The notes beneath the pieces were generated by a model. That model did not search any database. It had not been told where the DNA came from and was given only the letters and a program-made list of their open reading frames with translations. Below, piece after piece: positions 1-10,702 of a DNA stretch of 64,000 nucleotides. A program made the position numbers and the translations under genes. The first letter of the stretch is position 1, and each line of letters begins with the position of its first letter. The stretch is from contig OZ244065.1 of the NCBI GenBank assembly GCA_965215505.1, positions 2,336,001 to 2,400,000 on the forward strand, written 5' to 3'. The DNA comes from Capsulimonadaceae bacterium (GTDB lineage Bacteria; Armatimonadota; Armatimonadia; Armatimonadales; Capsulimonadaceae).

Positions 1-203
1 CGCAATCGAGGTATGTACGTCTCAGGCGCTTCCGGAAGGGGCAGCTTTCCTGTGCTGTATTTGATGATCGCTTCCCACAATGAGACGACGCTGAGGTACA
101 CCTCATTATCTGGATCACGGATTGCCTGGCTCCAAGCCTGAGTAAGCCTCTTGTCATTCGCGATGTACCACAAGAAAATGTGGGTGTCCAGCAGCAGTCT
201 CAT
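1..203 (-). CDS. vapC: PIN-domain (VapC-type) toxin, truncated by the window start
   Basis: Read manually: MRLLLDTHIFLWYIANDKRL...NEVYLSVVSLWEAIIKYSTGKL, a typical PIN N-terminus (LLDTH, SxxSxWE). The ATG at 203-201 overlaps the antitoxin stop (ATGA). Confidence 0.9.
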   Translation of the reverse strand, partial: MRLLLDTHIFLWYIANDKRLTQAWSQAIRDPDNEVYLSVVSLWEAIIKYSTGKLPLPEAPETYIPRL

Positions 204-451
204 CTCCCCTCAAACTCCCGAAGGATCTCTTCGGGTAAGGGATCATCAAAATCATCCGGCACGACGAACTCGCCTTCTGCGAGGCCGATAGGACGCAGCG
301 ACTTCGTTTTGCCTTCTTCAGCAGGCACGACTGGCTTGATCTCAGCAATGGGCTGACCATGTTGGGTCAACAAAAAAGTTTCCCCAGCTTTAGCATTCCG
401 CAGGTAGCCAGCTAGATCGCTCTGTATCTCGTCAATGCTGATTGTTGTCAT
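200..451 (-). CDS. Phd/YefM-family antitoxin
   Basis: MTTISIDEIQSDLAGYLRNAKAGETFLLTQHGQPIAEI is Phd-like, with a C-terminal RPIGLAEG...VPDDFDDPLP. Translationally coupled to the PIN toxin. Confidence 0.85.
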   Translation of the reverse strand: MTTISIDEIQSDLAGYLRNAKAGETFLLTQHGQPIAEIKPVVPAEEGKTKSLRPIGLAEGEFVVPDDFDDPLPEEILREFEGR

Positions 452-465
452 GGTTCTTTATCCCC

Positions 466-648
466 TCAGTCTGCGGAGGCAATCACATCAGGCCCAAATG
501 TCTCGACATGAAAAGCAATCGCCGACTTGACATCCGCAAGGGCTTCCTCATAGGTATCGCCTTCGCCGACCACGACGCCTGCAACGCCGAGCGGGTAGGC
601 GACGTAGCCGTCTGAGTGTCTTTCCACCACGATGTCAATTTGCTTCAT
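466..648 (-). CDS. hicB: HicB-family antitoxin-like protein (no hicA nearby)
   Basis: MKQIDIVVERHSDGYVAYPLGVAGVVVGEGDTYEEALADVKSAI carries the HicB signature GxTxEEAL. The start was moved to the ATG at 648. Confidence 0.75.
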   Translation of the reverse strand: MKQIDIVVERHSDGYVAYPLGVAGVVVGEGDTYEEALADVKSAIAFHVETFGPDVIASAD

Positions 649-895
649 GTGTCTGCTCCATGGGCTTTTCTGAGTGGGAATATGAGCCACCAACGCCATG
701 CGCCCAGGAGTAGGGGAAGCCATGGTTTTGCCGCGCTTCAGCGACGACCTGAGCCAAAGGCTTGACACGCCCTGCCGCCGCTGCCTCTAGTCCGCGCGAA
801 ATTCCGGCCCGGCTTTGTGCCATCTGCTCATCCGTCAGGTCATCGGGATTATCTGCAAGTGGATCGTCCGTCTCAGATGTTAGGTTGACGCTCAT
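635..895 (-). CDS. small acidic antitoxin-like protein
   Basis: 86 aa. ISRGLEAAAAGRVKPLAQVVAE resembles the C-terminus of ParD/RelB-type antitoxins. It lies in a TA cluster. Confidence 0.5.
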   Translation of the reverse strand: MSVNLTSETDDPLADNPDDLTDEQMAQSRAGISRGLEAAAAGRVKPLAQVVAEARQNHGFPYSWAHGVGGSYSHSEKPMEQTHEAN

Positions 896-938
896 GCCTT
901 TCGAGTTCCTAATGCCCTAGGGTTGTAGGCAGGGCAAT

Positions 939-1700
939 TCAGATTGTGAGCGAATAGCTGCTGAGGATTTTGTGACATTGGCGAATAGTCCACACTAAAC
1001 GCTTAACATCATCATGTTTCCGAATGAGCCGCTCGGGGGCATGCGAAAGTGAGTTCCTCACTTTGTACAGCTCGGTGACTTCTTCGTCGCTCAATTCCAA
1101 CAATTTAAAGTGTATGGCAACTTGAAGCATCCTCTTCAAACTGAGTTCGTTCAACAAACTCCGATTGACGTCGTTTGATTTGTTTTTGTTGAAGCTTTTT
1201 ATGATCTTGTTTGCATCAGGCGTACCAAAAACTTTATGTAACACCTGCTCTTCGAGTCGATCTTGAATCAAGGAAATGATGTGGAACTCCACTGCCTGCA
1301 ACAGGATGTAGAAGGGCAGGTTGACTAAATGATGATTAAGGTCGGAGAAATGAACATACCCTTCGACGCCCCACTTACCCAAGACAAAGCAGAACTGCCG
1401 TTCAGCAAAAACATCTACAATGTCCAGGATACTGCATCCTGATCCTACTGCCATATCGAAGTCAATTGACTTTAGATCAGGGCAATCACGTTCAATGTAG
1501 CCAGTTATCTTCCCGCTTGCCTCCACAGGCACCAGATTGAAGTCATCATACTCTTCAAGCAAGCGGCAGCCCTCTTCCGACGTTTTTGCTTTGACCAACT
1601 TCTCTACGGGAACCATGATGTCCCGCACAGTAAATTGCGTCGCAAGACGCTGAAGCGTTTGCTCGATGCTTGATGTTCGTGGATGTGGCATGTCATTCAT
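939..1700 (-). CDS. CBS-pair protein with C-terminal HEPN-like RNxxxH motif
   Basis: TVRDIMVP...FNLVPV..GKITGYI and GYVHFSDL are CBS-like. The helical C-terminus contains VRNSLSH (1041-1058). Visibly lower GC than the backbone. Confidence 0.65.
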   Translation of the reverse strand: MNDMPHPRTSSIEQTLQRLATQFTVRDIMVPVEKLVKAKTSEEGCRLLEEYDDFNLVPVEASGKITGYIERDCPDLKSIDFDMAVGSGCSILDIVDVFAERQFCFVLGKWGVEGYVHFSDLNHHLVNLPFYILLQAVEFHIISLIQDRLEEQVLHKVFGTPDANKIIKSFNKNKSNDVNRSLLNELSLKRMLQVAIHFKLLELSDEEVTELYKVRNSLSHAPERLIRKHDDVKRLVWTIRQCHKILSSYSLTI

Positions 1701-1736
1701 GTTAGAGTTGAGACGTCCTCATTCTGTTGACCGGAA

Positions 1737-3191
1737 TCATTTTGATAGCTGGTCAGGGACTTTCATCTTGATTTCCTGCTGCTTTCCGTTTCGGAACAGT
1801 GCCACATTGATTTCGTGGCCCGCGTTAGCTTTGACTAGCCGCTTGAAATCGCTTAGGGAGGCAAACGTGACGCCTTGAGCGGAAATCAGTTGGTCGCCAC
1901 TCTTGAGGCCAAGTTTATCCGCTAAACTGCCCTTGGGTACAGTAAGCACCCCTAGCATATTCCCAAAGAAAAGGCCACTTCCAAGTTGAAAGCCAGTGCC
2001 GTCACCGCCATGGCGAAGGGCTTCCGCCACATCGGCGGGAAGAGAGTGAGAAAACGCCGGAGATTGCACGATGACTTTGATATCTTCAAGGGAAGTAGGT
2101 ACGGCACTGTTTGCAGCGGCGATTGATCTCGATATGGCGTCATTAGCAACAGGTGTCCATCCACCTGTGCTTTGAGCGCTATGAACCCCATCAATCATCA
2201 AATCCACTGCCTGAAGTTGGTGTGCCAGATTCGCCTGGAACCCAGTAGCGAGCCGCTGCCTTAAAGCATCTGTCGTAGTTACCCTGCTGAGTGCTTCCGA
2301 CTCCTCTTTGGCTTCTCCTTGTAGCTTATAAACAAAGGCAGGTACGCCGGATTTGAATCCGCCGTTCTTTGCGATTTCTTCTTGCCCCACGAACTGCATA
2401 GCCACCGCAAGGTCTTCAGCGGTCACAAAAGTTCGCGCGAGAAGTTTATCAAGATCATCGTTTGCGCCAGCCCCGGAGGTCGGCGTGACAACCACAGTTT
2501 CCTTGGCGCTTCCCCAAGGCTGCGTAGGCAGGCTTGCGTCTAGCCCGAGGACGTAAGTCGAAGGCACGGCAAAATTGAGGTTCTGCCCCTCCCGGAACTG
2601 AAACGACACGACACCAGTGACTTGGCCTTGTGCGTTAAAGAGAGGCCCCCCGCTATTTCCAGGCGAAGAGGGGCAAGAGAACTGGTAGTGATTGATACCG
2701 TCTGCGATTTGTATTTGACTCAGAAGGCCGCTTGTGATGCTGAACTCTAACCCTTCTGGTGCGCCAATAACGTAAGCGGCGGAGCCTACGTCGGGGGCAG
2801 TTGTGGCGACAGGCAAGAGAGCTTTGCCGAAAACTTTGACACGAATTAAAGCGATGTCACGTTTCTCATCCTTATCCACAAGCCCCGACGATTCGAACTC
2901 CTGGCCGTCTGAAAACTTGGCAGTGACTGTTTTAGCGTCACGAACGACATGCCAAGCGGTGACGGCCATGCCATCCTTAACCGCCATGAAGCCGGTTCCC
3001 AGAACATTGTCACCGTTGCTTTTCAGCACCTTCAGCGTCATCACTGAGGGTAAAGATTGTTTGTAGATGTCCTGCGACTTTAACTCATCTGCTAAAGCCA
3101 ACGAAGCTACTATGAGTAGCAGTGACACAGTTGACATTATGTGCTGAATTATACGTTGCACCGATTTTATGTTCCTTTTGTGTTGCTTCAT
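1737..3191 (-). CDS. secreted S1C/HtrA-like serine protease with C-terminal PDZ
   Basis: TAWHVV (His), RDIAL (Asp) and GNSGGP (Ser) triad, PDZ motif GSLADKLGLKSGDQL, and a signal-like N-terminus. Alternative start at 3137. Confidence 0.85.
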   Translation of the reverse strand: MKQHKRNIKSVQRIIQHIMSTVSLLLIVASLALADELKSQDIYKQSLPSVMTLKVLKSNGDNVLGTGFMAVKDGMAVTAWHVVRDAKTVTAKFSDGQEFESSGLVDKDEKRDIALIRVKVFGKALLPVATTAPDVGSAAYVIGAPEGLEFSITSGLLSQIQIADGINHYQFSCPSSPGNSGGPLFNAQGQVTGVVSFQFREGQNLNFAVPSTYVLGLDASLPTQPWGSAKETVVVTPTSGAGANDDLDKLLARTFVTAEDLAVAMQFVGQEEIAKNGGFKSGVPAFVYKLQGEAKEESEALSRVTTTDALRQRLATGFQANLAHQLQAVDLMIDGVHSAQSTGGWTPVANDAISRSIAAANSAVPTSLEDIKVIVQSPAFSHSLPADVAEALRHGGDGTGFQLGSGLFFGNMLGVLTVPKGSLADKLGLKSGDQLISAQGVTFASLSDFKRLVKANAGHEINVALFRNGKQQEIKMKVPDQLSK

Positions 3192-3256
3192 GTGTGGCGA
3201 GAATTGACAGAACAGAAGGCCCAGGAAGATGGCTATTACGGCGTCTTGGAGCCTTC

Positions 3257-4960
3257 CTACATCCGCTCCGGCGCGGACAGGCCGAGCAGGGCCAGCACGT
3301 TCCGCAGGACGGTCTGGGTGGCGTGGACCAGGACCAGGCGGGCCTTCATGGTTTCCACGTCGTCGCAGACCACGCGGAGGGCGGTGGTGCGGTTGCCGGC
3401 GTCGTAGAAGGAGTGGAACAGGGCGGCCAGGTCGCGGGCGTACTGGACGATGCGCTGGGGGGCGTACTCGGACGCGGCCAGGACGACCTCGTTGGGCAGC
3501 TCGCTCAGTTTCTTGATCAGGTCGGTCTCGGCGTCTTCGGTCAGCAGGGACAGGTCGGCGTCTCCAGCGGCGGGGACGGAAACGCCCTTCTCGGCGCGCG
3601 CCTTGTCAATGGCCTGGACGATCCGGGCGTGGGCGTACTGGACGTAGTAGACGGGGTTGTCCTTCTCGGTCTTCCGGGCTAAATCTACGTCAATCTCCAG
3701 GGCGCTGTAGGGGGAGCGCATCAGGAAGAAGAACCGGGCGGCGTCTTTGCCGATCTCGTCAATCAGGTCGGCTTTTAGCTCCAGGATATTGCCCTTGCGC
3801 TTGGAGGACATGACGACCTCGCCGCCCTTGACGATGCTGACGAGCTGGTACAGCAGCACGTCCAGCCGGGCGGGGTCGTAGCCCAGGGCGGCCAGGCTCG
3901 CCTTGGTCCGGGCGACGTAGCCCGCGTGGTCGGCCCCCCAGACGTTGATGGCGCGGTCGAAGCCGCGGTCCAGCTTGTCCTTGCTGTAGGCCAGGTCCCC
4001 GGTCATGTAGGTGGGGGTGCCGTCGGAGCGCACCAGGACGCGGTCCTTGTCGTCACCGAACTCGGTGGACTTGAACCAGAGCGCGCCGTCCTTCTCGTAG
4101 GTGTAGCCGCGCTCCTGGATGCTCTCGATGGCCCGCGCGACGCGCCCGTCGGCGTGCAGAGTGGCCTCGCTGAACCAGGTGTCGAAGGTGACGCCGAAGG
4201 CGGCAAGGTCCGCCTTCTGCTGGGCGATCATGCCCTTCTCCGACAGGTCGCGGAAGGTGCGCGTGGTCTGCGGGTCGTCAATGTCGGCGTTCACGAACTC
4301 CTCGCCGTGGAGCGCCAGCACCTCGCGGGCCACGTCCAGGACGTAGTCGCCCCGGTACATCTCCTCCCACTCCTGGCCCGAATGCCCGAGCAGTTCCCGG
4401 TAGCGGAAGAAGACCGAGCGCCCGAAGTTGTTCATCTGGACCGAGTTCAGGGCGTCGTTGATGTAGTACTCGCGCGAGACCTCATTGCCCGCCGCCGCCA
4501 GCAGGGAGCAGAGCGTGTCGCCGATGGCGGCGTTGCGGCCCCCGGCCACGGTGATGGGGCCGTTCGGGTTGGTCGAGACGAACTCGACGACGATTCTTTG
4601 GCCGCCGGCCTCGGAGCGTCCGTAACTTGCGCCCTGCGCCTCGACGCGCCTGAGGATGTCGCCGAGCCAGTCCGGGCGCAGGCGCAGGTTGATGAAGCCC
4701 GGCCCGGCGATCTCCGCCCCGGCGATGAGGGCGTCGTCGCCGATGGGCAGGTGGCTGACGATGCGCGCGGCCACGTCACGCGGCGGCATGCCGAGGGTGC
4801 GGGCCAGCCCCAAGGCGACGCCCGTCGCCCAGTCGCCGTGCGCCTTCTGCTTGGGCATCTCCAGTGTGACGGCCGGGATCGTTTCGAGGGCTAGGTCGCC
4901 GTCCGCCCTGGCGGCTTCCAGTGCCTGCCCGATGATTCCCGCCAGTTGTTCCTTGATCAT
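3257..4960 (-). CDS. argS: arginyl-tRNA synthetase
   Basis: AGPGFIN, FGDDKDRVL.RSDGTPTY, WGADHAGY, NPVYYVQYAHAR and C-terminal APERM. The ATG at 4960 follows AGGAG. Confidence 0.96.
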   Translation of the reverse strand: MIKEQLAGIIGQALEAARADGDLALETIPAVTLEMPKQKAHGDWATGVALGLARTLGMPPRDVAARIVSHLPIGDDALIAGAEIAGPGFINLRLRPDWLGDILRRVEAQGASYGRSEAGGQRIVVEFVSTNPNGPITVAGGRNAAIGDTLCSLLAAAGNEVSREYYINDALNSVQMNNFGRSVFFRYRELLGHSGQEWEEMYRGDYVLDVAREVLALHGEEFVNADIDDPQTTRTFRDLSEKGMIAQQKADLAAFGVTFDTWFSEATLHADGRVARAIESIQERGYTYEKDGALWFKSTEFGDDKDRVLVRSDGTPTYMTGDLAYSKDKLDRGFDRAINVWGADHAGYVARTKASLAALGYDPARLDVLLYQLVSIVKGGEVVMSSKRKGNILELKADLIDEIGKDAARFFFLMRSPYSALEIDVDLARKTEKDNPVYYVQYAHARIVQAIDKARAEKGVSVPAAGDADLSLLTEDAETDLIKKLSELPNEVVLAASEYAPQRIVQYARDLAALFHSFYDAGNRTTALRVVCDDVETMKARLVLVHATQTVLRNVLALLGLSAPERM

Positions 4961-5006
4961 GTTGCTCCTAAGATACTCTCCCCGGCGCGAGTGCCGGGAG
5001 AGGAGG

Positions 5007-5963
5007 TCACTCCACCCATCTCGCAAGCCCCGGCCACAGCCTCTCGGCCAGACTCAGCAGGCCGTACACCGCCCCGTACCCCAGCAGGAGCTGCGCCAGC
5101 CCCATCGCCCACAGCCGGCGGGCTGGGGCGAAGCGCAGGACCATCCCGTTCTCCATCCACGATTGGCGGCGGGCCAGCACCTCTTCGGCGGCGCGGATCG
5201 CGCCCGCGATCTGTGCATCGGTGGCCGGGCGGGTCGCGAACCACTGCTGGAACCAGCCGCCGACTCGCCGCCAGAAAACCAGCGCGAACGGCCCGGCCAC
5301 CATCGCGGACACCGAGGCAGCGTCCGTCTGCGGCCAGCCGCCCGCCGAGGCCGCGCTGAAGACGGCCAAAAACGTCAGCAGGAACAGGGTGAAGCCGACG
5401 AACAGGTTCGTCCCGCAGCGCGGGTGGACGCGCGGCATCGCCCGGACACTCTCCGGCACGAGCGGGACGGAACGCTCGACGCAGTGGACGACCTGATGCT
5501 CGGCGGCGTGGGTCCCGGACAACGGGGCGAGGCGCAGCAGCAGGAAGACGAGCGGCAGGGGCAGCCAGGGCGAGATCGCCGCCAGCCACGTCTGGAAGCC
5601 GGGCGGCAGGCGTGCCTCCCAGCGGCTCAGGCCGGGCAGGTGGGCAGATGCCTCGTGCGCCAGGCCGTGCGCGCCGGCCTGGGCCAGCAGGGCCAGGCTG
5701 CTCATCGCCGCGCCCGTCAGGAACAGGCCCCAGAGACCCGCCCCGCCGCTGGAAACGCCGTCGTGCAGGTACACGCCCAGGGGCGTCGCCATGCCGCCCA
5801 AGCGGGGCGGTTCGGGCCGCGACAGGACGGCCAGAGTCAGGCCCGTCTGCGGGTCCAGGATCGGGAGCGTGGGCCAGGGCGAACGGTGCAGCGCCTCCAG
5901 AGCGTCGTGCAGACTGGTTTCGGGGACTGCGGGCGCGGCCACCGGCGGCGGTTCCTCTTGCAT
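5007..5963 (-). CDS. DUF1385-family putative metal-dependent membrane protein
   Basis: HAAEHQVVH and HPRCGTN motifs, plus TM segments. Confidence 0.8.
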   Translation of the reverse strand: MQEEPPPVAAPAVPETSLHDALEALHRSPWPTLPILDPQTGLTLAVLSRPEPPRLGGMATPLGVYLHDGVSSGGAGLWGLFLTGAAMSSLALLAQAGAHGLAHEASAHLPGLSRWEARLPPGFQTWLAAISPWLPLPLVFLLLRLAPLSGTHAAEHQVVHCVERSVPLVPESVRAMPRVHPRCGTNLFVGFTLFLLTFLAVFSAASAGGWPQTDAASVSAMVAGPFALVFWRRVGGWFQQWFATRPATDAQIAGAIRAAEEVLARRQSWMENGMVLRFAPARRLWAMGLAQLLLGYGAVYGLLSLAERLWPGLARWVE

Positions 5964-6329: not shown

Positions 6330-7808
6330 ATGTCCAGCTACATCAACACCAACACGACCGCCAGCGAGGCCGCCTACAACCTCGGCATCAACCAGTCGAA
6401 CGAGCAGAAGAACATCCAGCGCCTGTCGTCCGGCCTCCGCATCAACTCCGCCGCCGACGACGCCTCGGGCCTGGTCATCTCCGAAAGCCTGCGCGCCCAG
6501 TCCGCCGGCTTGACCCAGGCGACCGCGAACACCAACGACGCCATCAACGTGGTGAAGACGGCGGAAGGTGCCTTGAACGAGGTCCACTCGCTCCTGATCA
6601 ACATCCGCTCGCTCGTCGTCCACGCCGCCAACGTCGGCGCCAACGACCCGACCGCCCTGAAGGCCGACCAGGACGCCATCGCGTCCGCCGTCTCCAGCAT
6701 CAACCGCATCGCCAGCACGACCCAGTTCAACAACAAGAACCTGCTGGACGGCTCGGCCAGCTCCTCCTCGGCGGCCGTCACCGCCGGGACCGGCACGGCC
6801 AGCAGCACCGGCTCCACCAGCCTCGCCCTGGTCTCGCAGGCTTCGTCCTACGGCACCACCGCCATCGCCAGCGGCCACGTCGGCTACACCCAGGCGGTCG
6901 CCAACGTGCAGAAGGCGACATTCACGGGTGGTCTGGCCGCTGACACCTTCGGCGGCTCGTTCGTCATCGAAGGCAAGACGGTCGTCCTGAACGGCTCCTC
7001 CAACACGAACGCCAGCATCGCCACCGCGATCCAGCAGCAGACGGGCCTGAACTACGCGGTCACCGGGACCGGTGCCGCCGGCACCGGCCTGACCTTCACC
7101 AATCAGAAGACGGGCGCGGCGGCGGGGACCACGGACTTCACGAACCTGACCTCCACGACCGCTACGGCCACGGTGACGACCAACCCGACGGTCGGCGCGA
7201 ACGCCTCCGTCTCGGTGAACGGCCTGACCAGTGACACGGTGAGCACGGACGGCAAGACCTTCAGCTTCACCTCGGGTGCCCTCAAGGGCCTCTCCCTGAG
7301 CACCAACGCGACCGCCACCAACACCGACATCGGCGAGTTCAGCGCGACGGCGGACAAGGCGGTCGCCGGGCAGGACTTGCAGTTCCAGGTCGGCGCGAAC
7401 GCCGGCCAGACGGTGAACATCAGCATCGGCAGCACGAAGGCCAACACGCTGGGCAATGCCGGCAGCTTCAACCTCGGCGACCTGGCCGCAGGCGGCGCGC
7501 TGAACGTGACCGACCCGACGGGCGCCGCGCAGCAGAGCGCCCTGAAGGTGGTTGACCAGGCCATCGCGGACGTCTCCACGACCCGCGAGAAACTGGGCGC
7601 GCTCCAGAGCAACGTCCTGCAATCCAACGTCCGCAGCCTCGGCGTCGCGCAGCAGAATACGGACGCCTCGGAGAGTACCATCCGCGACACGAACCTCTCC
7701 TCGGAGATCGTGGACTTCACGAAGAACCAGATCCTGGTGCAGGCGGGCACGTCCGCTCTGGCCCAGGCGAATTCGGCTCCGCAGGCGATCCTGAAGCTCC
7801 TCCAGTAA
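6330..7808 (+). CDS. fliC: flagellin
   Basis: N-terminal INTN...RLSSGLRINSAADDASGL and C-terminal REKLGALQ...SESTIRDT...ILVQAGTSALAQAN. Confidence 0.97.
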   Translation: MSSYINTNTTASEAAYNLGINQSNEQKNIQRLSSGLRINSAADDASGLVISESLRAQSAGLTQATANTNDAINVVKTAEGALNEVHSLLINIRSLVVHAANVGANDPTALKADQDAIASAVSSINRIASTTQFNNKNLLDGSASSSSAAVTAGTGTASSTGSTSLALVSQASSYGTTAIASGHVGYTQAVANVQKATFTGGLAADTFGGSFVIEGKTVVLNGSSNTNASIATAIQQQTGLNYAVTGTGAAGTGLTFTNQKTGAAAGTTDFTNLTSTTATATVTTNPTVGANASVSVNGLTSDTVSTDGKTFSFTSGALKGLSLSTNATATNTDIGEFSATADKAVAGQDLQFQVGANAGQTVNISIGSTKANTLGNAGSFNLGDLAAGGALNVTDPTGAAQQSALKVVDQAIADVSTTREKLGALQSNVLQSNVRSLGVAQQNTDASESTIRDTNLSSEIVDFTKNQILVQAGTSALAQANSAPQAILKLLQ

Positions 7809-7833
7809 TCCTGACGGCTCACTTCTCTCCCGC

Positions 7834-7864
7834 GAGGGGGCTGCTTCGGCAGCCCCCTCTTTTT
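7834..7864 (+). terminator. intrinsic terminator after fliC
   Basis: GAGGGGGCTGC-TTCG-GCAGCCCCCTC followed by a T-run. Confidence 0.85.
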
Positions 7865-7941
7865 CGTCCGCTTTTCCTCCGTTGTGCCTGCCACGGATTG
7901 AAACCCGTGACCTCCGCCAAGCATCTTTGGCAGGACTCCCC

Positions 7942-7969
7942 TAATGAAAGCGGTCCCGCCCGCCGATTA
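7942..7969 (+). promoter_or_regulatory. sigma28/SigD-type promoter of fliD
   Basis: TAAT-N16-GCCGATTA upstream of the AGGAG RBS and the ATG at 7997. Confidence 0.55.
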
Positions 7970-7996
7970 TTCGGGTAACGCAGGAGACCCACCGTT

Positions 7997-10702
7997 ATGA
8001 CCACGCCCAGCATCAGTTTTTCCGGCCTCGCCTCGGGGATCGACAGCTCCAGCATCATCACGCAGCTCACGACGGTCGCGCAGCAGCCGATCACGCTGCT
8101 CCAGGGCAAGGACGACGCCTACAACGCCAGCCTTGCGGCCTGGCAGCAGCTCAACACCAACCTGTCCGCCCTGCAAACCGCCGCCGTCGCCCTGACCCAA
8201 GCGTCCACCTTCAGCGCGGCCAGCGCCACCTCTTCCAACCCCGCCGTCGCCACCGTCACCACCCTGCCGGGGGCCGCACTGGGGGAACACAGCCTTTCCG
8301 TCACCCAGATCGCCCAGGCGCAGAAGGTCGTCTCCGCCCCGGTCGCGAGCGGCAGCACCGCCCTGGGCCGATCAGGCAGCTTCCTGCTGAATGGGAAGAC
8401 GATCACCGTCAGCAGCACCGACGCCCTGACCGACATCTCGGTCAAGATCAATGCCGCCCAGGCGGGCGTCTCCTCCACCGTCGTCAACGTCGGCCCCGGC
8501 GATTTCCGGCTGACCCTGACCAGCAACCAGACCGGCGCGGCGAACACCATCGCCGCTTCGGACACGGCCGGCGGTATCCTCGGCGGGCTGGGCGTGCTGG
8601 CGACGGGCACGGCGGCCGTGCGGCAGGGCCTCAGCGGCACCCAGAACGGAGCGGCCTACTCCGGCGCGGCCTCACTGACCTTCAGCAGCGCGACACAGTC
8701 CATCGGCTCCCTGCTGGGGATCGCGGCGGGCAGCGCGCCCAATGCCCCCTTCCACATCACGAACGGCACGAGCGGGGCCGGCAACGAGGCCGACATCTCG
8801 GTGAACCTGAACACCGCCTCGCTTTCCGACGTGGCGAATGCCATCAACCAGGCCGGGATCAGCGGCGTCTCCGCCGAGGTCATCACCCTCCCGGACGCCA
8901 ACGGCAACCTGTACCGCATTCATCAGCTCCAGATCACCAACAGCAATTCTACGCCCGCCACGCCCAGCACGGCGTCGGCGTCGGGAACATCGCTGCTCGC
9001 CTCCGACACCTATTCCGGGTCAGTGACGGTCAACGGCCAGGCCGTCACGCTGGCCGGACACGCGACCACGCTGGCCCAGCTCAACACCGCCATCCAGGGG
9101 ACGATCGGCAACTCGGGCATCGTCGCCAGCGTCAGCGGGGGTGCCCTGGTGCTGACCGACGCCTCGGGCAAAAACATCACGGCGACGACGACCGGCCTGG
9201 ACAACTGGACCGGCGGCACGGCCGACAACGGTCCCCTGGGCGCGGCCGTGGTCGCGAACGGCACCCCGGCCGCGGCCGCCACGACGACGTTCACCGACCC
9301 GAGCGGCGTCCTGGGGACTTTGGGCGTGCTGCAAAAACCGTACACGCAGACGGTGACGAGCGCCCAGGACGCCAAGTTCAACCTGGACGGCCTGGACCTG
9401 ACGCGATCCTCCAACAGCGTCGGCGACGTGGTCCCCGGCGCGACGGTCAAGCTGCTCTCGGGGACATCAGCCTCGCCCGGCACGAGCGACCTCAACATCT
9501 CCCAGAACAGCGACTCCATCGTGGCCGCCGTTAACTCCTTCGCCACCGCCTACAACGCCATCACCGATTTCGTCACCGCCCAGAACCAGTTCACGCCGCC
9601 GACGGACACGTCCGCGGGCGTCGCCGGTGCCAGCGCGCCGCTGTTCGGCGACGCGACCCTGAACCAAATTCAGGACCAGCTCTCGCAGGCGCTCACGGCC
9701 GTTTCCGGCTCGACCACGCTCCAATCCATCGGCGTGACTCTGGACACCAAGGGCAAACTCCAGGTTGACTCGAACGTCCTGACGGCGGCCCTCCAGGCTG
9801 ACCCGACCAGCGTCGCCGACCTCTTCGGCGCGTCGGGCAAGTCGGACAGCAGCGCCATCCAGTTCGTCCAGGCCGGACCGAAGACGACGGCGACCTCGGG
9901 GACCGGCTATGCCGTCGCCATCACGCAGCCGGCGACCCAGAGCAGCGGCACGGCCGGGACAGCGAACACCGGCACGACGAGTACGGCCCCCGAGACGCTG
10001 ACTTTCGGCGGCGCGCTGTTCCCCGCCGGGGCCAAGCTGACGCTTCCGGTCGGCAGCACCCTCCAGGACACGGTCAGCCTGATCAACAACACCAGCAGCC
10101 TGAACAGCCAGATCTACGCGCGGATAGACGCGACCAACCATCTGGTGATCTCCTCGCAGCGGTATGGGTCGGGGACGGGGTTTTCGGTTAGCTCCGACAC
10201 CGCCGCGTCGGGCACGAACTCGGGCATCGGCCCTTCCCTGGCGGCGACTTTCGGCGTGGACGTCGCGGGGACCATCAACGGCGAGCCGGCGACGGGGACC
10301 GGGCGGACCCTCACCGGGAACTCCGGGAACGCGACGACGGAGGGCTTGCAGCTCCTCGTCTCCGCCACGACCGCCTCCCCGGCGGGCGGCGCGACCGGCC
10401 ACGTCACGGTGAATCAGGGCGTCGCAGACGGCCTCAACGTGACCCTGACCCAGATGCTGGACCCGGTCAATGGGGCGGTCGCCGGGGCGGAAACCAGCCT
10501 CAACTCGCAGATTTCCGACACGCAGAACCAGATCTCTCAGATCCAGACCGAGATAAGCACTTACAAGGATTACCTGTCACAGATGTTCAGCGACATGGAA
10601 ACCAGGGTCAGCGCACTCCAAGCGCAGGGCAACGCCTTCAACGCCTCGCTCGGCAACACGACGACTTCCACCAGTACCGCTTCCAGCGGTAAACTGGCTT
10701 AA
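7997..10702 (+). CDS. fliD: flagellar filament cap protein FliD (elongated, 901 aa)
   Basis: SGLASGIDSSSII N-terminus, AQDAKFNLDGL..TRSSN and PLFGDATL, a C-terminal coiled coil, and position between fliC and fliS. Confidence 0.92.
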   Translation: MTTPSISFSGLASGIDSSSIITQLTTVAQQPITLLQGKDDAYNASLAAWQQLNTNLSALQTAAVALTQASTFSAASATSSNPAVATVTTLPGAALGEHSLSVTQIAQAQKVVSAPVASGSTALGRSGSFLLNGKTITVSSTDALTDISVKINAAQAGVSSTVVNVGPGDFRLTLTSNQTGAANTIAASDTAGGILGGLGVLATGTAAVRQGLSGTQNGAAYSGAASLTFSSATQSIGSLLGIAAGSAPNAPFHITNGTSGAGNEADISVNLNTASLSDVANAINQAGISGVSAEVITLPDANGNLYRIHQLQITNSNSTPATPSTASASGTSLLASDTYSGSVTVNGQAVTLAGHATTLAQLNTAIQGTIGNSGIVASVSGGALVLTDASGKNITATTTGLDNWTGGTADNGPLGAAVVANGTPAAAATTTFTDPSGVLGTLGVLQKPYTQTVTSAQDAKFNLDGLDLTRSSNSVGDVVPGATVKLLSGTSASPGTSDLNISQNSDSIVAAVNSFATAYNAITDFVTAQNQFTPPTDTSAGVAGASAPLFGDATLNQIQDQLSQALTAVSGSTTLQSIGVTLDTKGKLQVDSNVLTAALQADPTSVADLFGASGKSDSSAIQFVQAGPKTTATSGTGYAVAITQPATQSSGTAGTANTGTTSTAPETLTFGGALFPAGAKLTLPVGSTLQDTVSLINNTSSLNSQIYARIDATNHLVISSQRYGSGTGFSVSSDTAASGTNSGIGPSLAATFGVDVAGTINGEPATGTGRTLTGNSGNATTEGLQLLVSATTASPAGGATGHVTVNQGVADGLNVTLTQMLDPVNGAVAGAETSLNSQISDTQNQISQIQTEISTYKDYLSQMFSDMETRVSALQAQGNAFNASLGNTTTSTSTASSGKLA

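Follow-up and report, generated by a model that had tools for sequence, protein, structure and literature searches.

The window analysed here is a stretch of 64,000 nucleotides from a Capsulimonadaceae bacterium (assembly GCA_965215505.1, contig OZ244065.1, positions 2,336,001 to 2,400,000 of the forward strand), and the coordinates of window features given below count from its first letter. Close to the start of the window, on the minus strand, lies an open reading frame (ORF) at 939..1700 that encodes a protein of 253 residues and ends in a stop codon at 939-941. We refer to it as the CBS-HEPN gene, since its product combines a predicted pair of CBS domains with a helical C-terminal domain that is probably of the HEPN type, and we treat it as a candidate sensor-effector. 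An earlier note, made from the DNA letters and their translations, had singled out this gene as a possible nucleotide-sensing RNase with the motif RNSLSH, and the ORF does carry this motif at residues 215-220.

Results

Start codon and base composition

The database copy of the protein (P0001) comprises 225 residues and begins at M29 (1616..1614). Residues 11-28, which lie upstream of the P0001 start and follow the pattern TLxRLAxxFTVRDI, are kept in relatives, with F23, D27 and I28 each present in at least 90% of alignment A1. Because this segment is conserved, the P0001 start looks too short, and the reading of 253 residues is likely to represent the true form of the window protein. In the start region (1614..1700, minus strand), we also noted a GAGGA 15 nucleotides ahead of the ATG at 1700.

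In base composition the gene is foreign to the rest of the window. Its guanine-plus-cytosine (GC) content is 0.454 and its GC content at third codon positions (GC3) is 0.539, whereas windows of 762 bp over 3201-64000 have a mean GC of 0.663 (standard deviation 0.037, minimum 0.543) and the core genes argS, fliC and fliD show GC3 values of 0.91-0.95. It is embedded in a low-GC block that covers approximately 1..3200 (GC 0.51 versus 0.663) and ends just short of argS. As this block begins at the window start, its left border falls outside the window, and no tRNA gene that might mark an island border was found in the 64 kb. The lower-GC setting described in the earlier note, between argS and an HtrA-like protease on one side and toxin-antitoxin (TA) genes on the other, is borne out by these values and by the neighbours listed below. 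A promoter and terminator scan of 1-3600 gave chance-level results, with 3 sites versus 2.1 expected and 4 versus 3.2 expected.

The N-terminal half: a predicted CBS pair

An AlphaFold2 model of the whole protein, built on 39 relatives, reached a predicted local distance difference test (pLDDT) score of 91.3 and a predicted template modelling (pTM) score of 0.84. In this model, the N-terminal half runs twice through a beta-alpha-beta-beta-alpha unit. A Foldseek search of the whole model against the PDB returned three matches at E<=1e-3 (7cfk_A at 4.4e-4, 6h1w_B and 3oco_A), the best ones being CBS pairs, and template modelling (TM) scores normalised to the target amounted to 0.67 for 4gqv and 0.64 for 3nqr_A, which are CBS pairs as well. 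Some of the CBS-pair matches were solved with AMP, ATP or cyclic di-AMP bound (3lfr, 7cfi, 7msu, 5ks7). With the Pfam CBS model PF00571, the window protein stayed unmatched even when values up to E=1 were allowed, and 15 of 87 relatives were matched at E<=0.01, with a best value of 6.5e-12. According to the model and these comparisons, it is strongly supported that the N-terminal half (residues ~22-123; 1332..1637, minus strand) forms a CBS pair, or Bateman module, by fold, and this bears out the CBS-like motifs of the earlier note.

Conservation was followed in alignment A3, which holds 79 mostly full-length relatives chosen as matches to the query and, for the greater part, 22-40% identical to the window protein. 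The best-kept stretch of the sensor half is the motif G114-Y-V-H-F-S-D-L-N122 (1335..1361, minus strand), which belongs to the second CBS motif (CBS2) and forms the junction with the first helix of the putative HEPN domain; here G is retained in 78, H in 71, S in 73, D in 78, L in 76 and N in 74 of the 79 sequences. CBS motifs typically carry at their end a ribose-phosphate motif of the form G-h-h-[TS]-x-x-[DN]. In the CBS2 element G114-Y-V-H-F-S-D120, the bordering G and D are thus kept in 78/79 sequences each, and the T/S position is taken by His in 71/79 and by Thr in 4/79. Two further residues of the sensor half are well kept, namely F54 (1539..1541, minus strand), an aromatic F or Y in 73/79 relatives, and R71, which is found in 66/79. 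F/Y54, R71 and the HFSDLN element are candidate ligand contacts within the CBS cleft.

The C-terminal half and its invariant residues

Residues 124-251 (948..1331, minus strand) form helices in the models, in line with the helical domain described in the earlier note, and the isolated C-terminal domain, modelled on 87 sequences, was likewise all-helical with a pLDDT of 93.7. We read this part as a putative HEPN domain of the Swt1/Abi2-like kind. Only three columns of A3 are invariant (79/79), E138 (1287..1289, minus strand), R215 and H220, and the same holds in the alignment of 87 sequences. R215 and H220 enclose the putative HEPN catalytic motif R215-N-S-L-S-H220 (1041..1058, minus strand), and E138 is the acidic residue upstream of this R-x4-H. 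The residue after R215 is N in 61/79 and D in 16/79 relatives, together 77/79. The arginine and the histidine, whose conservation had been proposed earlier as a check on the HEPN idea, are retained in 79/79 and 87/87 sequences, and this among relatives that are mostly only 18-40% identical. A bare R-x4-H arises in 2202 of 5000 shuffles of the window protein and is therefore uninformative by itself; what goes beyond chance is its invariance. A second R-x4-H, RLIRKH (residues 224-229; 1014..1031, minus strand), follows nine residues past the conserved one, with the R kept in 9/79 and the H in 38/79 relatives, and is probably fortuitous.

The HEPN signature, as laid out in the 2013 survey by Anantharaman et al. 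(PMC3710099), comprises R-x4-6-H, in which a polar residue (N, D or H) follows the arginine, and an upstream acidic residue that is typically part of E-x3-[KR]. In the window protein, position +4 of E138 is occupied by I142 and not by K or R, so that of E-x3-[KR] only the acidic residue is present. The window protein itself shows weak matches to HEPN_Apea (E=0.11) and HEPN_AbiA_CTD (E=0.12). Profile comparisons with the 87 relatives matched HEPN families nine times at E<=0.01 (Apea 3, MAE_28990 3, RiboL-PSP 2, Swt1 1) versus three unrelated single matches. When the family profile was compared with PDB sequences, the best non-CBS match was Csm6 (6tug_A, E=0.061), whose RNKVAH was aligned on the family motif; the profile of alignment A1 yielded only two chance-level matches among PDB sequences. 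HEPN_Swt1 clusters are also found among the ESM-Atlas neighbours, at 0.80, which we take as a lead only. Supported by the invariant E...R[ND]xxxH set and by the weak, convergent sequence matches, the C-terminal half is probably a HEPN domain.

Relatives and their annotation

A word-indexed search recovered 40 relatives, and an exhaustive phmmer search of 1.84 billion cluster representatives (50% identity) recovered 262 at a limit of E<=1e-3; a stricter limit of E<=1e-10 leaves 136, and one of E<=1e-30 leaves 37. Most of these proteins have 235-260 residues and match end to end. Where the source gives a name, these relatives are called 'hypothetical protein'; the 76 proteins found with the A3 profile are, where named, designated only 'hypothetical protein' or 'CBS domain-containing protein'. 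A search for longer fused relatives found none, which constitutes weak evidence.

The only curated family touched by the window protein is NCBIfam NF053863, DS11_antiphage ('CBS domain-containing anti-phage protein'), with E=1.5e-4. In this alignment, window residues 85-220 fall on model positions 151-284, ending at H220, and the same model also matches 13 of 31 relatives at E<=0.01, with a top score of 36.3 bits. For the window protein and these 13 relatives, it is the only or the best-matching curated family. DS-11 itself (WP_000257686.1, E. coli) was reported in the DefensePredictor study as a one-protein CBS plus HEPN anti-phage system, for which protection against phage was validated (PMC13092281).

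Genomic neighbourhoods of the relatives

We compared 11 loci that carry a relative, all from species-representative metagenome-assembled genomes (MAGs), of which six belong to Acidobacteriota/Terriglobia, three to Chloroflexota and two to Ignavibacteria. The set leaves out the closest relatives (P0002-P0015, 56-87% identical), which are metagenomic. In an all-against-all comparison of 146 neighbouring ORFs and 8 window ORFs, only the CBS-HEPN gene was common to the loci, besides integrases in L004 and L010. As no neighbour recurs among the 11 loci, there is no conserved partner, antitoxin or protease, and the CBS-HEPN gene is stand-alone, without a conserved partner gene. This result is in keeping with the idea of a single-gene sensor-effector put forward in the earlier note, the same model having been proposed by the authors of the DS-11 work (PMC13092281).

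The clearest defence-island context among the loci is that of L006 (Anaerolineales MAG, 10..3962), where the homologue at 1170..1910 has a class I pAgo (PADLOC E=3.4e-129) as its immediate neighbour on one side and a BrxL Lon-like protease (E=5.3e-170) on the other; a PIN/Phd pair follows at a distance of 4 kb. Within 6 kb, the homologue of L008 comes after PglZ, DUF1848 and PglX, L002 carries a type IIG restriction-modification (RM) enzyme and a DEAD helicase, and L001 carries PDC-M19A/B. Over the same distance, L010 holds a weak SIR2 match adjoining the homologue as well as an integrase, L011 a REase_II match, L004 three tyrosine recombinases and an IS91 transposase, and L005 SRAP, Mom and DUF3631. 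The neighbourhoods of L003, L007 and L009 look metabolic. At least one PADLOC match at E<=1e-10 is present in 7/11 loci, a raw count given without a background rate, and we rate as solid those of L001, L002, L006 and L008. The PADLOC matches near the relatives are suggestive of a defence-island context. For the copies of the CBS-HEPN gene themselves, PADLOC at E<=1e-10 gave no match at any of the 11 loci.

Damage was seen in four of these copies. Those of L009 (7319..8037) and L011 (10001..10716) are frameshifted, the copy of L007 (499..912) is without the C-terminal, putative HEPN half, and the copy of L010 (10001..10549) is without the first 63 residues. Such defects may have arisen in the assembly of the MAGs, or a gene that is costly to keep may be decaying.

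Neighbouring genes in the window

Upstream of the CBS-HEPN gene, at a distance of 36 nucleotides, an HtrA-like serine protease (Trypsin_2 and PDZ; 1737..3191, minus strand) forms part of the context. Its N-terminus appears signal-peptide-like by eye, and the protein is probably an ordinary secreted protease. Its PADLOC matches are confined to the protease portion of RT-Protease_XI models (E=5.8e-15) and to weaker, domain-level ones to LmuA and HamA. The next gene is argS (3257..5026; TIGR00456, 386 bits versus a cut-off of 261.65). Downstream, 43 nucleotides from the CBS-HEPN gene, lies an ORF of 86 residues (635..895, minus strand), for which Pfam, NCBIfam, PADLOC and PHROGs all came back without a match. 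It is followed by a weakly HicB-like ORF of 60 residues (466..648, minus strand; phrog_497 at E=0.006, HicB_lk_antitox at E=0.049). The stop of the former and the start of the latter overlap by 14 nucleotides, a layout typical of coupled TA genes, and scans with Pfam, NCBIfam, PADLOC and PHROGs recognised no HicA-like toxin beside these two ORFs. Pfam and NCBIfam scans further identified a Phd/VapB-like antitoxin (200..451, minus strand) and a PIN toxin fragment that is cut by the window start (3..203, minus strand). The low-GC block thus contains, from left to right, the PIN fragment, the Phd/VapB-like and HicB-like genes, the ORF of 86 residues, the CBS-HEPN gene and the HtrA-like protease. 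The CBS-HEPN gene stands beside TA genes and is not part of a TA pair, and in this respect the placement in a toxin-antitoxin cassette, as suggested in the earlier note, is not supported. In the high-GC core DNA beyond the island, we noted a flagellin of 492 residues together with an unusually long FliD cap protein of 901 residues (6330..10702, plus strand).

Discussion

A CBS-gated RNase as a possible stand-alone defence protein

We lean towards the view that the window protein is a compact HEPN RNase gated by its CBS pair, that it acts as a stand-alone anti-phage sensor-effector, and that it is a distant, shorter relative of DS-11. The gene would have been brought in on horizontally acquired DNA, and its product would reside in the cytoplasm and work without a partner. 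The N-terminal CBS pair would bind a small adenine-type nucleotide, whereas the C-terminal HEPN domain would function as a metal-independent RNase that uses R215 and H220, together with E138 and N216. A dimer is probable, as judged from DS-11 and other HEPN enzymes, and in it the paired HEPN domains would form a composite R/H active site; a complex prediction for a homodimer with two ATP molecules scored 0.02 against a mark of 0.42 and is evidence neither way. When the CBS cleft takes up or lets go of its ligand, the HEPN domains would change their orientation, and RNA cleavage would thereby be turned on. In the model, the GYVHFSDLN strand-helix runs straight into the first HEPN helix (a helix at 118-122, then one at 124-145), which suggests a simple lever between sensor and nuclease. 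Once active, the enzyme would stop translation in the phage-infected cell by cleaving RNA, and the cell would be arrested as in abortive infection.

Several results weigh against this interpretation. As to the HEPN assignment, the Pfam matches of the window protein remain below their gathering scores (HEPN_Apea, 13.3 versus 24.4 bits, E=0.11; HEPN_AbiA_CTD, 12.7 versus 27 bits, E=0.12). With the isolated C-terminal model, a Foldseek search of the PDB gave no match at E<=1e-3 (best E=1.0), the HEPN toxins 8yuf, 7ae8, 4nqf, 7bxo and 1wwp as well as Csm6 5yjc appearing at E 2.8-4.2 amid many unrelated helical bundles, and a search of BFVD returned nothing significant (best E=1.2). On the supporting side, the highest query-normalised TM score of the C-terminal fold search (0.50) belongs to a HEPN enzyme, Csm6 5yjc_A, in a match that is not significant. 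As to the relationship with DS-11, the window protein attains 21 bits in NF053863 versus a cut-off of 260 and is therefore not a member of the DS-11 equivalog family, and the residue correspondences with DS-11 that we give below were drawn by eye. As to a role in defence, the window protein has no PADLOC match beyond PDC-M52A at E=0.037, the family has no match in PHROGs, and no recognised defence system apart from the TA genes adjoins the gene in the window. Among the 11 loci, L003, L004, L005 and L007 have no PADLOC match at E<=1e-10 and L009, L010 and L011 have only generic or weak ones. Moreover, these loci were picked by the single pattern G[YF][VI]HFSDLN and are hence a biased sample, and in view of the missing background rate, enrichment in defence islands is not demonstrated.

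The strongest competitor keeps the ligand-gated HEPN RNase and assigns it to physiology, where it would tune RNA stability to energy or nucleotide status (ATP/AMP, Ap4A) during stress or dormancy. We regard this as rather unlikely. CBS pairs are classical energy sensors. The copies of L001, L003, L007 and L009 lie amid metabolic or transport genes, the window copy adjoins TA genes, a class frequently linked to stress, and a role of this kind is what the 2013 survey suggested for CBS-HEPN fusions, proposing that ligand sensing by these proteins controls RNA degradation or stability (PMC3710099). However, the sporadic distribution, the foreign composition and the damage in 4/11 copies are traits of an accessory or conflict gene and not of a housekeeping regulator, several relatives are embedded between pAgo, BREX or RM genes, and DS-11, the only relative studied experimentally, defends against phage (PMC13092281). 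Should the family have no part in defence, it would still illustrate a control of RNA decay by nucleotides, along the lines of the 2013 proposal (PMC3710099).

A second competitor questions the output domain itself. The protein might be a CBS regulator whose C-terminal half is not a catalytic HEPN domain and instead provides another helical output, for binding or as a scaffold, with R215 and H220 contacting a ligand or partner. Such a reading, which we consider improbable, would fit the lack of a significant structural match to HEPN proteins in PDB and BFVD, the position of all HEPN sequence matches below curated thresholds, and the ease with which a bare R-x4-H arises by chance. Yet the three invariant residues of the protein occupy exactly the positions of the HEPN triad, accompanied by N or D after the arginine, and the named sub-threshold matches of the C-terminal half are to HEPN families or enzymes, in register on the motif. 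In DS-11, the equivalent domain was assigned by its authors, using HHpred, to HEPN_Swt1 (residues 252-359 of 365, probability 0.98, preceded by a CBS pair at 134-241), and defence was lost in the CBS mutant Y157A and on mutation of the HEPN catalytic residues, R330A being included in the strain list (PMC13092281). The HEPN reading of the earlier note is supported by the invariant E...R[ND]xxxH set and by the weak convergent matches; the structural searches did not supply a significant match.

That the protein is the HEPN toxin of a two-gene module, neutralised by the product of 635..895 or by the HicB-like protein, or else the partner of a possibly co-transcribed HtrA-like protease, is very improbable: the genes share a strand, are separated by short gaps with promoter- and terminator-like sites between them not above chance, and adjoin TA genes, but none of these neighbours recurs beside the 11 relatives, neither the window neighbourhood nor the 11 loci contain an MNT-type nucleotidyltransferase, and the protease, given its signal-peptide-like N-terminus, is probably located in another compartment. 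Both the TA partner and the protease partner were rejected for want of conserved linkage across the 11 loci.

Returning to the CBS-gated defence RNase, a further step can be taken tentatively, although we hold it to be doubtful. The compact clade of ~240 residues, with its near-invariant G-[YF]-[VI]-H-F-S-D-L-N and its R71, might represent a distinct sensor class with a ligand other than that of DS-11, and at the same time a defence family that is widespread among soil Acidobacteriota, Chloroflexota and Ignavibacteria and is missed by current defence-finder models. It might then respond, for instance, to a nucleotide that is specific to infection, or to the disappearance of a housekeeping nucleotide. 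The clade appears widespread and uncaptured by the models because 262 clusters were recovered at E<=1e-3, while PADLOC remained blank at E<=1e-10 for the 11 copies and reached a best value of E=0.037 for the window protein. 

Quite apart from this doubtful reading, a much shorter and highly divergent clade in which nothing but the CBS pair and the putative HEPN core is retained would mark out the minimal sensor-effector. Mutagenesis and ligand screens can be aimed directly at its conserved sites F/Y54, R71, the HFSDLN strand and E138/R215/H220.

Comparison with known systems

Csm6 and Csx1 (CARF-HEPN) are dimeric ancillary RNases of type III CRISPR systems, in which an N-terminal nucleotide sensor gates a C-terminal HEPN RNase. 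The window protein shares with them, in outline, the order of a predicted N-terminal nucleotide sensor and a putative C-terminal HEPN domain, a similarity that is not statistically significant; it differs in that its sensor is a CBS pair and not a CARF domain, and in that no CRISPR or cyclase genes lie nearby, either in the window or at the 11 loci. The window protein resembles the HEPN-MNT systems of TA types II and VII (7ae8, 8yuf, 7bxo) in that its putative HEPN RNase is small and carries R-x4-H, and in that it lies among TA genes. The usual HEPN antitoxin is an MNT-type nucleotidyltransferase, whereas the window and the 11 loci show no MNT neighbour (within 6 kb at the latter). The structural matches to these toxins reach only E ~3-4, and control in the window protein would be exerted by the fused sensor and not by an antitoxin.

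In the literature on CBS-HEPN proteins, nothing relevant was found beyond PMC13092281 and PMC3710099. The 2013 survey, in its account of such fusions, lists CBS-HEPN and CBS-HEPN-HD proteins of the Swt1/Abi2 clade (alr3009 and a Pelobacter propionicus protein; PMC3710099). Compared by description, these fusions likewise join a nucleotide-sensing CBS module to an active (R-x4-6-H) HEPN domain, and a Swt1-like placing of the window protein agrees with the ESM-Atlas leads and with the HHpred result for DS-11; unlike the CBS-HEPN-HD fusions, the window protein has no HD domain. The earlier note had presented the gene as a candidate for an uncharacterised system, a description that has to be withdrawn, since the 2013 survey had already described CBS-HEPN fusions and put forward the same hypothesis (PMC3710099), and single-gene defence by a CBS-gated HEPN protein is known from DS-11, whose validation included point mutants of both domains (PMC13092281).

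DS-11 is the closest of the known systems in design. It has a CBS pair followed by a C-terminal HEPN domain with R-N-x3-H, in the same order and within a single gene, and its authors proposed that the CBS pair binds an adenine derivative, as yet unknown, and in this way controls the nuclease (PMC13092281). By eye, RNDVMH of DS-11 (R330) corresponds to RNSLSH of the window protein (R215), the glutamate of EIENH to E138, GIITTTDL to GYVHFSDL, and the adenine-contacting Y157 to F54. The two proteins differ in length (365 versus 253 residues), an N-terminal extension of ~130 residues in DS-11 being absent from the window protein, whose CBS pair begins at about residue 22. They differ also in the ribose-phosphate position of CBS2, which is Thr in DS-11 and His in the window family (71/79), and in their hosts, DS-11 being found in Enterobacteria and the window family in soil-type MAGs of Acidobacteriota, Chloroflexota and Ignavibacteria. 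What is new here is a compact and divergent clade that scores far below the DS-11 cut-off, lacks the N-terminal third of DS-11, has a different CBS2 site, and is sizeable and unannotated in the environment. Such a clade would extend defence of the DS-11 type from Enterobacteria to abundant soil phyla, in which the corresponding proteins are annotated as hypothetical.

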